A stretch of DNA of 16,119 nucleotides from a virus. The translations under genes were made by a program, and so were the position numbers. Location of the stretch: the UHGV virus genome UHGV-1638998; one strand, written 5' to 3'. Below are positions 1,971-7,791 of the stretch, piece by piece (the first letter of the stretch is position 1; each line of letters starts with the position of its first letter). The notes below the pieces were generated by a model. It did not search any database. It worked only from the letters and a program-made list of their open reading frames with translations, and was not told the origin of the DNA.

Positions 1971-2181
1971 AGTGACCACCGTTTATTGTGCATATAGAAC
2001 CCCCTTAGTTGGTGAGTCCATCATACACAATAAACCATATGTGGTTAATTGTTACCATCAGTAAAAATACAGCAGCTTCATAATCACAATCAGACATGCC
2101 AGTGGTGTAAGCTACCAACTGGTTTTTTGTCATTTGTCATGGCAGAATCGTGCCACCTGGTGATATCAAAAGAAAACCATC

Positions 2182-2421
2182 ATGATTGGCAAAATTATCA
2201 AATACATATCCCTCTCTTTTGCAATAGCGCTGTTTGCAGTTCTTGCTCTTTCCGCAATCGATAATCAAATGGAGCAAAAAGCGTGGAATAAATATAAAAA
2301 CGAACACGAATGTTTTATTTCAGACACTGAAAGATGTGATGATAATTATAACAACCAAAAAATTTGGCAACATACCATCCTGCTACAAAATGTAAATGTA
2401 ATAATAGTGAGGAATTTGTAA
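2182..2421 (+). CDS. Small secreted or membrane-anchored Cys-containing protein (79 aa), unknown function
   Basis: N-terminal hydrophobic signal-like segment IIKYISLSFAIALFAVLALSA; two Cys eight residues apart; AT-rich like the downstream gene; stop 1 nt before the next start; weak RBS. Confidence 0.35.
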   Translation: MIGKIIKYISLSFAIALFAVLALSAIDNQMEQKAWNKYKNEHECFISDTERCDDNYNNQKIWQHTILLQNVNVIIVRNL

Positions 2422-2422
2422 G

Positions 2423-3541
2423 ATGAAAGTTAATTCTTTTTTTGTTTTTGGATTAAGTTGCCTTTTTATATCAGGGCCGGGATATTCACAAGATGATAAT
2501 GGCAATGAAAAATTAAATGAGGTTACTGTAAGAGGTAATCACCCAAGAGCAAATGGCATTTGGACTCAATACGAAGGTCTTGATACAGCCCTGCGCGGTC
2601 ATGAAATTCTCACTGATGTCATTGAACCTAATTCACAGTTCTACAACTGGAAAGGTGAGCCAGTAAAAGCCCATGATTTAACAAATCAGAATGCCGATAA
2701 TTATGATAGCGTTCACAATCACTATCAAAACTTCCTGAGTGAAGTATGGAATTTTAAACCAAACACCAACGCTGTCTCCATCTGGGGTGATTCTGCTGCC
2801 ATTGCTAAAGACTCAAAGGCGTGGGGGGCATTCTTTAGCGCTCGTTCATATTTCAAGGCCTTTACAAAGGATGGGAAATATCATGATCTGGCACCGGCTG
2901 GTTCAGATTTCACATTCAATCCAGAAGACTATGATAACCAACTCGTAGGGGTTGAGATTGATGTCCTTAATGGCGGCAAGCCCGGAGTATTCCCCAATAA
3001 GTCCAAAGTGGGCTTACAGATAGTTGGCTTTGGAAATCCAAACTCCATGGCCGTAGAAGTGCGAAGCGAAGATACAGATAAAGATGTACCAGCAGAGAAG
3101 CGTCGCGGTGTCTGGGAAAGTGGGATTTACTTCAAGAATTCTATAGCTGATTATGGCAGGCTCATTGTTGCTGATTTTGATAAAGCCAAGATGGGTTTTG
3201 ACTTTAGGCGATCTCTATTCCGCGAAGGGATAATGCAGGCACGCACAGAAGGTGTTGGTACCGGTATTATCTTGAATGAAGGAAAGTCGGGAGAAATATA
3301 TGGAGGCACTCGCTGGAACGGTTCAGAAGATAAGCGCAACTGGATTTCAATAAGAAACGGCGAAGGTGGAACTCGTATAGTCTCAAATGATAATACTAAA
3401 GAAGTTCTTGCAGTCGACAACGATGGCGGCGTTTACATTAATGGGGATGTTTACATTAATGGCAAGAAATTAAATGACCTACTAAAACTTGATGAAAGAG
3501 TTTCAAAAATCGAAAAACAATTATCAGAATTAAAAAAATAA
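2423..3541 (+). CDS. Secreted protein of unknown function (AT-rich cargo gene)
   Basis: 372 aa; N-terminal Sec-type signal peptide MKVNSFFVFGLSCLFISGPGYSQ; RBS GAGGA; much lower GC than the flanking phage genes; C-terminal Gly/Asn-rich repeats ending in a short coiled coil. No family recognised. Confidence 0.7.
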   Translation: MKVNSFFVFGLSCLFISGPGYSQDDNGNEKLNEVTVRGNHPRANGIWTQYEGLDTALRGHEILTDVIEPNSQFYNWKGEPVKAHDLTNQNADNYDSVHNHYQNFLSEVWNFKPNTNAVSIWGDSAAIAKDSKAWGAFFSARSYFKAFTKDGKYHDLAPAGSDFTFNPEDYDNQLVGVEIDVLNGGKPGVFPNKSKVGLQIVGFGNPNSMAVEVRSEDTDKDVPAEKRRGVWESGIYFKNSIADYGRLIVADFDKAKMGFDFRRSLFREGIMQARTEGVGTGIILNEGKSGEIYGGTRWNGSEDKRNWISIRNGEGGTRIVSNDNTKEVLAVDNDGGVYINGDVYINGKKLNDLLKLDERVSKIEKQLSELKK

Positions 3542-3544
3542 AAA

Positions 3545-3564
3545 GGTGGGGCGTAAGCCCCACC
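3545..3564. terminator. Bidirectional terminator hairpin between convergent genes
   Basis: Stem GGTGGGGC/GCCCCACC with loop GTAA; the long A-run upstream gives a strong T-tract for the minus-strand tail fiber transcript. Confidence 0.75.
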
Positions 3565-3571
3565 AATCTAC

Positions 3572-6322
3572 TTAATTGCCTTCCAATTTTTCAATTCTTT
3601 TTATTACATCTTGCATCGCTGATACAATTGGTGCTATGAATTGTTCATAACGTAAACCAATCTCCCCATCTTCACCCTCTACATATCCACCAAAGTCGCC
3701 AGTGCCGAGTTGATCAAGTAGGGCTTTAACTTCCTGAGCGATAAAGCCGTAATGGGTACGCTTACCGGCAACCGAAGTGATAACCGTTTTTTTCTTTGGT
3801 ACCCTTACAGTTTCCATGCGAGGAATGCTGACCGTCTCAAGGAAACTACCGTTTTCGTCTTCAACGTTAACAGTATCAAATACCGGGTGCTCAACTTCTT
3901 TTGTAACATATTTTCTTACAAATTTGATTACACCATCAACATTAATTCGCTCGTTAATCTCTTCTGTACTATGGATAATCTCAGTGACCTGCCGTTCTAT
4001 ATATTCAAATCCGTCATCAATTTCTTCAACAACATTCCCCCCACTGATGAAACGATATGATACCGGATGCAGCCCTTTAATAAACTCTATCGATAAGTTG
4101 CTTTCAGCCACATCAGTTTTTAAAGTTCCATCAGATGTTTGAATTGTTCCATTTGCAGCCCAAATAGATGAAGGGCGATTTCCAGATTTACCAACGGTAA
4201 ACATATTATCTACATGCGGGTAAATAGCGGCATTAAAATGTAGTTCATTATTTATTTGAATAAACCCATTACCTTTCGCGGCCAGAATAGTATTTATATT
4301 CGCATCAGGGCCGACAGCGCTAAAAGCAGGTTGATCACCAGTAGTGGCACTATCAAAACGAAATCTATTCACGTCTCCAGAAGAGTATGTGCGATAACCG
4401 AACTCTGCACATGCTCGCCCGTATGCCCCCCCTATAGTGACTATGCCATTTACACCATCAACAGTGATCTGTCGTCGTGCATTGCCGTCCGGATCCCACC
4501 CACTACCAATAAATACTGGATACTGGTCACCGTTACCACCAGCTGCGTGTAGGTGATAAAATCCCCGAGCAGAAGCAATAAGAGAAATATTTTCTTCAAA
4601 TCCAGCTCCGGTAACACGATGCATACGCAATGCAGTAACTAAGTTATCTACACTACCCCACCAATAATAGTCGACATTATCAGCAATACCTACATCCGCG
4701 GTAAGTGTGGCTAACCAAGAATCAGAATATGATGCCTGTACAGTCGTAATGCCATTCACTACGAACGTAGTTTGTATATTGTTGAGCGGAATAAATGGGT
4801 CGCCAGATATACGAATAATTTTCTTCCCCGATACATTGCATTTACCCTGCCCCCAAATGTAACAGCATACATAGGTTGCAGATATTGATGACGGAAATGA
4901 CACCGCGCTGTTATCGATGTTTTTCACTGTAAATGATCCTGATGCCACTGATACCACCGTATACCCAGCATCCCTGATCCATATTGTTTTTCCAATTTCA
5001 TCAACCGTTAAGCCTGGTCCTGTATTTACATTTACGATATTAGTTCCGGCAACAGTTGTGCATTTACCCGCGCGAGAAGCTGGCTGGACTGCGATCTCTG
5101 TCGGGCTTGGGTATTTACTTGGTTGTACTGAAGTCCATGACGAATAGCCATCCGGAAAGAAAACATTACCATAAGTTCCATTAATTGGGTTTCCGCCACC
5201 AACCTGTAGACCGGATACATTGCCAGCATTGCTCCCAAACCTGAAGTTAACACCAAATTGCGGGTGCCCATCCGAACCGCGAACGCCTTCAGTTCCAATA
5301 CTTACAGCCCCGGAACCACCATCAATACGCTGAACAACAGCACGGCGAAGATATCCGGTTCCTGTTATCGTTACTGGCTCTTCAAAAATGAAGTGGCGGC
5401 CGTAGCAGTCCACTTCGGTATTGAGCATGTAGTTTCCAGCAGGAACGAGAATTTGCTTGCCCTTTGGCACTAGGGCGTTTGCGGTAGAGAATGCCGGTGA
5501 GGCGTCCGTTGCGCCGGAATATTCATCGCCTAAGAAGTCTTTAATACTGATAAACTGCGCGTTAAAATCATGCTGCGTACGCCCTACCGCTCCAGCATAA
5601 GGCTGTTTTACGCCAATTAAGGAATCCCCCTTCCCATCATCAGTGCTTGCTAATTCAATGAGGACATCCGCTGCGCTTCCGCTTTCCGGAAGAAGCATAA
5701 TCGGATTACCAGATGAATCCATACCAACAATTTTATTTTTTCGTAACTCAATAGATGGTAATTGTGGGATGCTTTCTTCCGTACGAAGCGTTCTGCTGAA
5801 TAACAAATCTGTATGTGAAGTATTTCCTTCGCTTAATGAATCAGCATAATTTTTAGTTGCTGCATCCTGTGGCCTTACCGGATCTCGCAGATTTCTAATA
5901 TAGTTACTCATGGCATCGTAATAATTTGCCACAAACGACGGTTTACGCAATGCCAGGCTGAACAAACTGCCCACCTGCTGAATCAGCATCGTCAGTTTAT
6001 CGAATGCATCTTCATGCACCTCAGCGAAAAACTTACCCTGATTGCGCAGGTCTGTTTCCTGCGTTGCCTCCAGCTCGCGGGCAATCGATATTTGCCAACC
6101 GTTCGCCAGCGGCGAGGTAAGAACAACACTTCCGCCGTTAAAGCCACCAGCGTTCGTCACGGTGTAGTCAGTATCCAGCACCAGTACCGTGATGTTTTCG
6201 CTCAGGTCAATCACTGAAACGGTAAGGTCTGCTTTCTTGAAAATTCGGAAGGTGTAAGGGAATGATGTCGTAACGCCGTTCCCGGTGTAATCGTTATGGT
6301 CAACTACGGTTGATACCGTCAT
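3572..6322 (-). CDS. Tail fiber / tailspike protein with T7-gp17-like N-terminal anchor and C-terminal intramolecular chaperone (peptidase S74-like) domain; candidate depolymerase
   Basis: 916 aa from ATG 6322 (RBS GGAGA; the listed ORF starts 14 codons upstream). N-terminus …GNGVTTSFPYTF…LDTDYTVT… follows the T7 gp17 pattern. C-terminus HYGFIAQEVKALL…LRYEQFIAPIVSAMQDVIKRIEKLE resembles the self-cleaving chaperone domain of endosialidases. The central region is lower in GC. Confidence 0.85.
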   Translation of the reverse strand: MTVSTVVDHNDYTGNGVTTSFPYTFRIFKKADLTVSVIDLSENITVLVLDTDYTVTNAGGFNGGSVVLTSPLANGWQISIARELEATQETDLRNQGKFFAEVHEDAFDKLTMLIQQVGSLFSLALRKPSFVANYYDAMSNYIRNLRDPVRPQDAATKNYADSLSEGNTSHTDLLFSRTLRTEESIPQLPSIELRKNKIVGMDSSGNPIMLLPESGSAADVLIELASTDDGKGDSLIGVKQPYAGAVGRTQHDFNAQFISIKDFLGDEYSGATDASPAFSTANALVPKGKQILVPAGNYMLNTEVDCYGRHFIFEEPVTITGTGYLRRAVVQRIDGGSGAVSIGTEGVRGSDGHPQFGVNFRFGSNAGNVSGLQVGGGNPINGTYGNVFFPDGYSSWTSVQPSKYPSPTEIAVQPASRAGKCTTVAGTNIVNVNTGPGLTVDEIGKTIWIRDAGYTVVSVASGSFTVKNIDNSAVSFPSSISATYVCCYIWGQGKCNVSGKKIIRISGDPFIPLNNIQTTFVVNGITTVQASYSDSWLATLTADVGIADNVDYYWWGSVDNLVTALRMHRVTGAGFEENISLIASARGFYHLHAAGGNGDQYPVFIGSGWDPDGNARRQITVDGVNGIVTIGGAYGRACAEFGYRTYSSGDVNRFRFDSATTGDQPAFSAVGPDANINTILAAKGNGFIQINNELHFNAAIYPHVDNMFTVGKSGNRPSSIWAANGTIQTSDGTLKTDVAESNLSIEFIKGLHPVSYRFISGGNVVEEIDDGFEYIERQVTEIIHSTEEINERINVDGVIKFVRKYVTKEVEHPVFDTVNVEDENGSFLETVSIPRMETVRVPKKKTVITSVAGKRTHYGFIAQEVKALLDQLGTGDFGGYVEGEDGEIGLRYEQFIAPIVSAMQDVIKRIEKLEGN

Positions 6323-6426
6323 GGCCTGTCTCCAATAAAGCAGCGCCCGGCGCGCATGCATCATCTGGACAGTTTATTACCTAGCAAACCTTATATGAAT
6401 TGAATGAATAACAATCATGAAAGTTA

Positions 6427-6441
6427 TTACCTTTCAGGTAA
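6427..6441. promoter_or_regulatory. Operator-like palindrome TTACCTTTCAGGTAA (perfect)
   Basis: In the divergent region between the tail fiber start (6322) and the LexA-box gene, 38 bp upstream of the LexA box. Confidence 0.6.
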
Positions 6442-6478
6442 AGCTCATATCGTGCTGGATAGTGTTTCAAAGTTTTGC

Positions 6479-6498
6479 TACTGTACATACATACAGTA
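6479..6498. promoter_or_regulatory. LexA (SOS) box TACTGTACATACATACAGTA
   Basis: Matches the enterobacterial LexA consensus TACTG(TA)5CAGTA at all CTGT/ACAG core positions; 20 bp upstream of the ATG at 6518. Confidence 0.75.
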
Positions 6499-6517
6499 AT
6501 TGCATGGAGAACATGAG

Positions 6518-6778
6518 ATGCAACGTCAGTATCATCACCCGCTGGAAAAAGGATTTGCCGAACGCATACACACGCCGGGAGGCGTCCGCTCCCTTGTAGA
6601 AGAATCACATCTGATGACGTTGCTGCGACAACTGAATGAGGACGGATTTAACGTTGATGGCCCGATGGCGGAACTAACTGCCTTGGTGAACTACGTCACC
6701 AGCTCGCAGATGTCCATGAAGGATCTGCAGATGCATCTCGATTACTGTGTGGAAAAACTGAAGCAGGAAACGACTTAA
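6518..6778 (+). CDS. Small SOS-regulated protein, putative antirepressor (86 aa)
   Basis: ATG at 6518 with RBS GGAGAA 7 nt upstream (the listed ORF starts at an upstream TTG); a near-consensus LexA box lies 20 bp upstream. The product is not recognised; antirepressor function is inferred from context. Confidence 0.55.
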   Translation: MQRQYHHPLEKGFAERIHTPGGVRSLVEESHLMTLLRQLNEDGFNVDGPMAELTALVNYVTSSQMSMKDLQMHLDYCVEKLKQETT

Positions 6779-6812
6779 AAAAAGGCCGCATAGCGGCCTT
6801 GTGACATGTCAC
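6777..6812. terminator. Bidirectional terminator region between convergent transcription units
   Basis: 8-bp stem AAGGCCGC/GCGGCCTT (6782..6789 and 6793..6800), A-run on one side so a T-run on the minus strand; followed by the perfect palindrome GTGACATGTCAC (6801..6812). Confidence 0.65.
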
Positions 6813-7000
6813 AGTAATGGTAGCTTAAACACTATAGCCGCGAGAATGACGAAGGTCGCGAAGTAAACGACCTTCGCAGAGGTCTCGCCAAGCCAACCTT
6901 TTCTGATAGCGAATATTACCGCCCAAACATACGCCGTGCCGCATACCACGAAGAACGCAAACCAGAACAGAATCATGCCTATCTTGATCAATATATCCAT
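6809..7000 (-). CDS. Small membrane protein (63 aa, two predicted transmembrane helices)
   Basis: ATG shares a base with the TAA of the RuvC-like gene (TAATG). Translation MDILIKIGMILFWFAFFVVCGTAYVWAVIFAIRKGW… is strongly hydrophobic. The listed 84-aa ORF probably starts at this internal ATG. Confidence 0.5.
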   Translation of the reverse strand: MDILIKIGMILFWFAFFVVCGTAYVWAVIFAIRKGWLGETSAKVVYFATFVILAAIVFKLPLL

Positions 7001-7791
7001 TATTGCCCCACTGCCTTCCCGAGGTCTGGTGCGCGGCGAGGCGTTGTCTCGCCAGGCTCCCACCAGCTCGTCGTGTTGAATTCACGCTGCGCTCTGTCAC
7101 GCACCCTGTCGTTATACCCTGGGTTAGCCATCTCCTGAAGTTGCTGGAGTATCAGGTGGTTGGTAATGGCTTTCGCGTACCAGAGGTTGGCGAATGGGGT
7201 GATCATGCGCGCCGTCTTCAGCGCATCGGCACCGAAAGAAGTTTCTTCGCCCTGCAATGCCTTCTGCGGGTTCGTGATCAGAAGTTTGGTTAACTGCTCG
7301 GCGAAGCTCAGCACCGGCCCCCCGATGGTGGCCGCGATACTGGATCCATATTGCGTATGGTCCTGGAAAAGGAAATCGCCGTAGATACCGAATGAGCCGC
7401 CCTTCAGCAGAGCCTGCACCCATGTAGTTGGCTTTGTCATATCCAGTGGGTCATTGCCGGTCAATAGGCTGTTCATCTGGTTTGCAAACATCCCAGCCAA
7501 TGTCGTGCCTGCTATGTATGAAGCGAGGAATTTAAGCGCCGGTACGCCAGCTGCATGCCCGAACGTGAACATGCTTGCCGTTCCCTGTCCTGGCATGGCT
7601 CCGACCTGCTCTAGGTACGCATGAGTGATTCCGTACTGCCGAACCCATGCAGCTACCGCTGCGCCGTTCACCCTGGACTTTGTGCCGACCTTGATGGTTG
7701 GCATTGCCAGATGGTCGATGTATCCGCCCTGCTCAGTTACGAGAACCAGCGCCCCGCTGCATCCCGGGTCAATCCCTAATATTGCTGTCAT
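7000..7791 (-). CDS. RuvC-like (RNase H fold) nuclease with a C-terminal extension of about 100 aa
   Basis: 263 aa; N-terminus MTAILGIDPG and AYLEQV align with RuvC catalytic Asp7 and Glu66 (from memory); a later GDFLFQDH segment could supply the remaining acidic residues; the C-terminal 100 aa are unassigned. Confidence 0.65.
   Translation of the reverse strand: MTAILGIDPGCSGALVLVTEQGGYIDHLAMPTIKVGTKSRVNGAAVAAWVRQYGITHAYLEQVGAMPGQGTASMFTFGHAAGVPALKFLASYIAGTTLAGMFANQMNSLLTGNDPLDMTKPTTWVQALLKGGSFGIYGDFLFQDHTQYGSSIAATIGGPVLSFAEQLTKLLITNPQKALQGEETSFGADALKTARMITPFANLWYAKAITNHLILQQLQEMANPGYNDRVRDRAQREFNTTSWWEPGETTPRRAPDLGKAVGQ

Follow-up and report, generated by a model that had tools for sequence, protein, structure and literature searches.

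Between the lysis cassette and the tailspike gene of the virus genome UHGV-1638998, analysed here as one window of 16,119 nucleotides (nt), lies a cargo gene, ORF372 (an open reading frame (ORF) of 372 amino acids (aa), 2423-3541, + strand). Based on its homologues, predicted signal peptide and conserved core, we tentatively favour the reading that its product is exported and trimeric, binds a ribofuranose (Ribf)-containing receptor glycan, probably also processes it, and so serves in lysogenic conversion. The analysis shows that ORF372 is a real gene whose product has an export-signal-like N-terminus, that its family is linked to Ribf-polymer clusters and to the neighbouring type of tailspike, and that in Escherichia coli it co-occurs with an O4/O20-type locus. 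A first-pass annotation made from the DNA letters had proposed an undescribed exported accessory function at this place; this core intuition holds, with O4/O20-type Ribf polymers as the probable target, and overall its observations were partly confirmed and its interpretation partly supported.

ORF372 is certainly a real gene and the sole real cargo gene of the region. Homologue searching gave 188 matches at E ≤ 1e-3 (best E = 2.7e-240), all annotated as 'hypothetical' and none with a Pfam domain, and an exhaustive hidden Markov model search of 1.84 billion representative proteins gave 152 family members. The family is encoded in 33 of 185,579 species genomes and its members come from Paenibacillus (70% identity), Lachnospiraceae, Planctomycetota, alpha-, beta-, gamma- and delta-proteobacteria, NC10, Acidimicrobiia, Acidobacteria and a candidate-phyla-radiation (CPR) lineage. 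Judged by its sequences, it is a compact, highly conserved family without a name, spread over many phyla. ORF372 has no match in Pfam, PHROGs, NCBIfam or PADLOC, tblastn matched none of 50,697 phage genomes, the profile search of PDB sequences returned 0 matches at E ≤ 10, and the RefSeq accession of the protein was found in no paper. Thus, the earlier statement that the protein cannot be assigned to a known family still stands, with the correction that it is no orphan; homology searches of the libraries scanned matched neither it nor the small ORF upstream of it to a characterised family, and for ORF372 the structural analogues were non-significant.

The N-terminus of ORF372, MKVNSFFVFGLSCLFISGPGYS/QDD, has the n/h/c pattern of a Sec signal peptide at approximately residues 1-22 (2423-2488), and an N-terminal hydrophobic segment is present in 94 of the 138 N-terminally complete family members, which bears out the Sec signal peptide predicted earlier; the product thus reads as targeted to the cell envelope. 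A lipoprotein anchored through Cys13 was judged unlikely, with this Cys too early and inside the hydrophobic region; the Paenibacillus homologues have a lipobox-like LLTSC. About half of the members with an N-terminal signal peptide or anchor also carry a transmembrane helix at the C-terminus. Such a helix is lacking in the Paenibacillus proteins and in that of the window, which end in a predicted coiled coil; in ORF372 this is a helix at approximately residues 350-371 with a heptad pattern. A minority of members lack any export signal. The conserved core, approximately residues 36-345, contains the motifs HNHYQN (98-103), DxQLxGxExDVxN (171-183) and VGFGNPN (201-207) together with K195 and D260. 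Nine residues, W121, D171, Q173, E178, D180, N183, K195, Q199 and D260, are each kept in at least 85% (mostly >90%) of the secreted, the cytoplasmic and the distant subgroups. This suggests one ligand or catalytic site that would work in both compartments, and therefore without nucleotide cofactors.

To describe the genomic context of the family, neighbour genes were clustered over 54 loci and counted by 33 species loci within 8 kb of the family gene. A GT4 glycosyltransferase family was found in 17 of the 33 loci, a family of 676-aa proteins in 14, and at least one of the two in 20. The 676-aa protein carries an N-terminal HAD motif and matches PDB entry 7shg, 'Ribofuranosyl transferase', over nearly its whole length (E = 6e-32). 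The closest homologues of ORF372 (80-82% identity) lie in enterobacterial gnd/ugd-linked O-antigen loci, in the order wzm, wzt, a 678-aa coiled-coil protein, a WsaF-type GT4 and the 676-aa protein, which corresponds to ORF5 of the Klebsiella pneumoniae O4 cluster rfbKpO4, directly followed by the homologue; this is the rfbKpO4 gene order. In that cluster, ORF6 (a GT4 enzyme using UDP-galactopyranose, UDP-Galp) and ORF5 (a ribofuranosyltransferase dependent on phosphoribosyl pyrophosphate, PRPP) jointly build the O4 polymer, [Galp-Ribf]n, with ORF7 as the coiled-coil terminator adding Kdo (3-deoxy-D-manno-octulosonate) (PMC11231755). Six rfbKpO4 genes, with no family gene among them, direct synthesis of authentic O4 antigen in E. 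coli K-12 (PMC11231755), which indicates that the family goes with Ribf-polymer systems in an accessory capacity and is dispensable for synthesis. The clusters that contain the chromosomal members depend on ABC transporters and make polysaccharides with ribofuranose. The family accompanies the orf5/orf6 polymerase pair across phyla, and in Paenibacillus tarimensis the homologue lies within a glycan cluster with rmlACBD; the window copy stands without the linkage to the polymerase pair. The polymer is the common denominator of all family contexts, so glycan recognition is the safest inference, and the surface-polysaccharide role that had been considered plausible is supported by this context.

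A second line of evidence is the location of ORF372 in the prophage. At the same slot between holin and tailspike, Enterobacter phage BUCT554 carries gtrA, GT2 and glucosyltransferase genes, a sister E. coli prophage (L056) carries an Acyl_transf_3 O-acetyltransferase, and epsilon15 is annotated with serotype-conversion genes. ORF372, lying between the lysis cassette and the tailspike and transcribed toward the tailspike, occupies the position of epsilon15-like conversion cargo, and the slot is indeed typical of such cargo as had been suggested. Its product shows no homology to the known O-antigen modifiers (Gtr, Oac, Wzy, Iap) in Pfam, PHROGs or NCBIfam. Compared with the gtrABC cassettes (P22, SfX; BUCT554), ORF372 shares the holin/cargo/tailspike slot in a near-identical backbone, the convergent orientation toward the tailspike and an expected action on exported O-antigen that would protect lysogens. 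However, gtrABC encodes three membrane proteins working with an undecaprenyl-phosphate-linked sugar donor, whereas ORF372 is a predicted single soluble exported protein without a glycosyltransferase signature, and the two are alike neither in sequence nor in architecture. The Oac acetyltransferases (Acyl_transf_3; Sf6, phiV10) are represented in the sister prophage at the same slot and behind the same type of leader, but are polytopic membrane enzymes using acetyl-CoA; ORF372 has no membrane domain beyond its signal peptide and is not homologous to them.

Further, the family recurs beside receptor-binding protein genes. In a Pseudomonas prophage, a tailspike 31% identical over 709 aa, including the central domain, is directly followed by a family member with 53% identity to ORF372, and in the enterobacterial prophage L055 the tailspike is 68% identical and the family member paired with it 44% identical. 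Two P2-like viral contigs, of a phage type unrelated to the window, carry a relative of 309-310 aa with a signal peptide and a coiled-coil end directly after their tail-fibre and fibre-assembly genes (L052, 7815-8747; L053, 7737-8666); in L053, the next gene after the relative reads as amidase-like. The receptor-binding region of the window tailspike is also 73.6% identical to that of the lytic Autographiviridae phage ROV85 of Pantoea agglomerans (L057, PP526764.1, 16824-19475), and the same region occurs at 46% in E. coli phages ZQ2, FH3 and 1-6af; this distribution indicates modular exchange across phage families. No family member was found in ROV85. Temperate phages with the family gene and a lytic relative without it is the pattern predicted by a lysogen-protecting function.

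The same pattern bears on another explanation, that ORF372 acts in superinfection exclusion or defence without any relation to glycans, for instance by blocking podovirus DNA ejection or tail penetration in the periplasm. An exported, prophage-encoded protein at a moron locus, absent from the lytic relative, would fit it. Nevertheless, ORF372 has no PADLOC match, and most family members are chromosomal, in non-phage glycan biosynthesis clusters of many phyla, which makes this explanation quite improbable.

Among 5,426 complete E. coli genomes, the ORF372 family was found in six, always within this prophage, and an O4/O20-type island, integrase-bearing and located at tRNA-Sec, was found in 190. 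Five of the six prophage-bearing genomes also hold the island (Fisher p = 3e-7, with clonal relatedness uncontrolled). The island cluster is 84% identical to the enterobacterial one from wzm through the ribofuranosyltransferase gene, with a GT4 gene before wzm. In the example of E. coli SCEC020001 (L054, NZ_CP032426.1, 58882-79799), the genes follow the order GT4, wzm, wzt, coiled-coil protein, GT4 and ribofuranosyltransferase, with IS1 and IS5 copies flanking them. The similarity breaks off precisely where the ribofuranosyltransferase gene ends; no copy or remnant of the family gene follows that gene in the E. coli island. The E. coli O20 locus was listed in a 2019 review as not yet located and has been reported as 'not at galF-gnd' (PMC7685785), and a cluster identical to rfbKpO4 has been described in E. 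coli O20ab (PMC11231755); the tRNA-Sec island is probably the O20 antigen locus.

The structure of ORF372 was predicted as a monomer only. AlphaFold with a 37-sequence alignment gave a poor model (predicted local distance difference test, pLDDT, 61), and with a 150-sequence alignment including distant representatives it reached a pLDDT of 86.8 and a predicted template modelling score (pTM) of 0.73. In this model the chain is extended, with a confident core (mature residues ~75-265) that has almost no intrachain sheet, followed by a few C-terminal strands and a 22-residue helix, and it reads as one chain of an intertwined oligomer. The nearest structural analogues, with scores that are not significant, are trimeric phage fibres (gp37, Mu), the HylP hyaluronate lyases and the tailspike depolymerase Solidus_gp83. 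An independent argument for a trimeric, surface-exposed domain comes from distant homologues of residues ~100-340, which form the N-terminal head before the YadA stalk and anchor of trimeric autotransporters; ORF372 differs from these adhesins in having a short coiled-coil end and neither stalk nor C-terminal beta-barrel anchor. YadA-type heads were seen in alphaproteobacteria, as in Novosphingobium (P0168; L045, 7857-9425). On the model, ORF372 is most likely a homotrimeric fibre with a beta-helix-like core and a C-terminal coiled coil. A secreted copy of the receptor-binding domain of the tailspike was ruled out (hhalign probability 0.06%).

With such a model, and with the gene adjoining tailspike or tail-fibre genes in all phage contexts, ORF372 could be taken for a virion component, either another receptor-binding fibre or an accessory to the tail fibre. 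This is very improbable, as the protein carries an N-terminal signal peptide, its gene is convergent to the tailspike and lies in the conversion slot, neither PHROGs nor the 50,697 phage genomes hold a match, most members are chromosomal and non-phage, and ORF372 is unlike the tailspike in hhalign. The closest of the weak structural analogues, HylP1/2/3 of streptococcal prophages (triple-stranded beta-helix) and Solidus_gp83, resemble ORF372 as elongated chains, expected homotrimers, prophage-encoded and directed at polysaccharide. They differ from it in showing no sequence similarity and no alignable catalytic residues at these non-significant scores, and the HylP proteins are virion-associated and lack the signal peptide that ORF372 has.

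A more serious alternative is that ORF372 binds without catalysis, as a lectin-like trimeric fibre for the Ribf polymer that masks or sequesters periplasmic polysaccharide, for example by hindering its ligation to lipid A-core; in its cytoplasmic relatives the fibre would offer the end of the chain to terminating enzymes or form a rigid spacer, and in autotransporters it would be the adhesin head. Signal-less members (P0130, P0131, P0148, P0154; loci L029, L030, L040) are fused to polysaccharide pyruvyltransferase (PS_pyruv_trans), Sulfotransfer_2 or FkbM methyltransferase domains and have no transmembrane segment, and these fusions argue for a binding module, as do the members joined to a YadA stalk and anchor, the conservation of one site in both secreted and cytoplasmic members, and the fibre-like model resembling gp37 and Mu. 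The Microvirga pyruvyltransferase fusions, at least, still adjoin the GT4 and ribofuranosyltransferase pair. Yet the sequences are more strongly conserved than is usual in a fibre or lectin (70% identical in the E. coli prophage and Paenibacillus), the invariant D171/E178/D180/D260 with K195 resembles a catalytic or metal site, and stoichiometric masking of an abundant polymer would be demanding for a moron product, so that we regard pure binding as possible, if on the unlikely side. The pyruvyl-, sulfo- and methyltransferase fusion partners are candidate chain-terminating enzymes, and in ABC-transporter-dependent glycan systems the fibre-like domain might take the place of the coiled-coil 'molecular ruler'.

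Returning to ORF372 as a glycan-binding and probably glycan-processing conversion factor, its trimeric state, glycan binding, catalysis and phenotype are what we infer from the above. The prophage would have captured one family copy from Ribf-polysaccharide systems into its serotype-conversion slot, beside a tailspike that probably uses a Gal-Ribf glycan as its receptor. In the lysogen, the protein would be exported to the periplasm and bind the exported Ribf O-polysaccharide, still lipid-linked or freshly ligated, through the acidic/polar site of the nine conserved residues; the bound glycan would then be processed, most likely trimmed or cleaved. A surface glycan altered or shortened in this way would allow poorer adsorption of phages with this tailspike, with lysogenic conversion or superinfection exclusion as the expected outcome. 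Processing is favoured because acidic residues cluster at the site, the structural analogues include a depolymerase and lyases, and the sequence is extremely conserved. AlgL, BcsZ and PslG are periplasmic glycanases encoded in polysaccharide operons, and the ORF372 family resembles them as a secreted accessory protein within a polysaccharide cluster that is dispensable for polymerisation; they belong to other folds and families, and the activity of the ORF372 family is putative.

Several points weigh against this reading. The family is dispensable for O4 synthesis, so that any natural role inside the clusters would be an accessory one; the prophage is a deletion remnant, so that neither expression of ORF372 nor a benefit from it is assured; and a Ribf glycan is a putative receptor of the window tailspike. 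In addition, the fusions to cytoplasmic transferases, in members without a signal peptide, are less in keeping with an extracytoplasmic glycanase than with a module for glycan binding or scaffolding.

An extension of the proposed processing role, which we offer as a doubtful idea, is that the family constitutes a new class of cofactor-independent, trimeric beta-helical glycan-processing enzymes for ribofuranose polymers, such as endo-glycanases or cap- or residue-removing enzymes. From Firmicutes to Proteobacteria, it would represent a step after export that has gone unrecognised in the polysaccharide pathways dependent on ABC transporters, and temperate phages would have captured it as a one-gene serotype-conversion device. 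If so, the family would possibly be the genetic basis of antigenic subtypes, for example E. coli O20ab versus O20ac. Known phage serotype conversion works through membrane glycosyltransferase systems, acetyltransferases and polymerase replacement or inhibition, and a single soluble exported protein would be a new route for a prophage to edit its own receptor; prophage editing of a glycan receptor is of a known kind, and the effector family is new, as would be its chemistry. The family also keeps close company with the PRPP-dependent ribofuranosyltransferase systems that were characterised recently (Klebsiella O4/O7, E. coli O20) and are targets for vaccines and phage therapy.

The region 1980-3564 had been described in the first-pass annotation as a two-gene cassette of low guanine-plus-cytosine (GC) content, encoding a 79-aa signal-peptide protein with two cysteines and the 372-aa protein, with its own terminator and convergent with the tail fiber. 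Both ORFs do lie there, convergent with the tailspike: ORF79 (2182-2421, +), which ends 1 nt before the start codon of ORF372, and ORF372, against the tailspike ORF (3572-6364, −). The two-gene cassette itself did not hold up, since ORF79 lies in a backbone leader common to prophages with differing cargo and its frame is not conserved. DNA 2048-2420 is approximately 90-95% conserved in two sister prophages at comparable insertion positions (89.5% against L055 by blastn, gaps counted), and downstream of the same leader L055 carries a 430-aa relative of ORF372 and L056 the O-acetyltransferase. Single-nt indels at 2226, 2354 and 2413 make the N- or C-terminus differ in each ORF79 copy. Based on the different downstream cargo and these frame-breaking indels, 2048-2421 was treated as the backbone leader of the cargo slot. 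As a gene, ORF79 is therefore weak: it is a + strand ORF with the hydrophobic N-terminal segment as described, but a C44F variant in one E. coli copy loses one of the two cysteines. It falls into 3 protein clusters among 5.8 billion cluster representatives, all from Escherichia where the source is identifiable, and scans of Pfam, PHROGs, NCBIfam and PADLOC gave nothing meaningful. Substitutions between ORF79 and L055 by codon position (5/4/11) show a mild third-position excess, which leaves room for a short translated leader, and in the alignment the leader of the sister prophages terminates with an ATGA that overlaps the start of the cargo gene. From these sequence comparisons, ORF79 probably stands outside the swapped cargo, as an ORF acting as leader or in translational coupling or as the decaying gene of a small membrane protein, and the leader 2048-2421 may contain a coupling ORF. 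A role of ORF79 as a specific partner protein of ORF372 was ruled out, with the L056 acyltransferase having the same leader upstream.

Upstream of ORF79, the intergenic region 1980..2181 separates the divergent holin gene (−) and cargo (+), and comparison with phages and sister prophages divides it: 1980-2047 is phage backbone common to Enterobacter phages Tyrion and BUCT554, and the leader beginning there (2048-2181) is common only to sister E. coli prophages. No convincing sigma-70 promoter match was found on the + strand upstream of 2182. A 7-bp tandem duplication, TTTGTCA x2, is present in the leader at 2126-2139 and not in two sister prophages; within it, TTGTCA comes close to the −35 consensus hexamer. 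At the other end, a GC-rich hairpin between the convergent genes (3545-3564; −19.1 kcal/mol, z = −4.4) has a T-tract on the − strand only and forms a canonical intrinsic terminator for that strand. This indicates that it is primarily the terminator of the tailspike, shared by both genes, rather than the cassette's own; it is probably a stop also for ORF372. A structured RNA in the leader or terminator region was ruled out, with only chance-level matches in the Rfam scan.

The GC content is indeed lower in 1980-3564 (0.397) than in the lysis genes (0.575) and the early region (0.552), but the tailspike (0.445; its C-terminal half, 0.415) and 6323-6999 (0.465) continue the tract. The low-GC tract is thus cargo plus tailspike, up to about 7000, and not private to the cassette. 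This tract, together with the loss of virion genes and the lack of a convincing promoter match, could mean that ORF372 came with the low-GC receptor-binding region of the tailspike from an O-antigen locus and is an inert passenger, functionless in a decaying prophage. That is improbable: the ORF is intact, region 1980-3564 (1,585 nt) has 99.9-100% identity to six complete E. coli chromosomes from pigs, humans, hospital and river water, a good Shine-Dalgarno sequence (GAGG) stands 9 nt upstream of ORF372, and the pairing with a receptor-binding gene recurs independently in Pseudomonas and P2-like prophages.

The window as a whole is a complete but defective epsilon15-like (Uetakevirus) E. coli prophage, a deletion remnant, of which approximately 73% aligns with BUCT554 at 88.8% identity. 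Its left end holds a DUF2514 spanin-like gene, a GH19 endolysin and two holins (188-1979, −). The tailspike (RefSeq start = 6322) carries a T7-like adaptor at its N-terminus and a Peptidase_S74 chaperone at its C-terminus. The ORF at 7000-7791 is just the last 242 residues of an 824-aa virion protein and abuts the replication genes, which indicates that the virion and packaging genes were deleted. No tRNA attachment site is present in the window. Just past the tailspike start, a small + strand ORF (6500-6778), 92 aa by the ORF call and annotated as 86 aa/261 nt in relatives, has no match in NCBIfam or PADLOC, the libraries searched for it, and to its right lie replication, regulator, RecET, methylase and integrase genes. 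This small ORF is kept in BUCT554, L050, L055 and L056.

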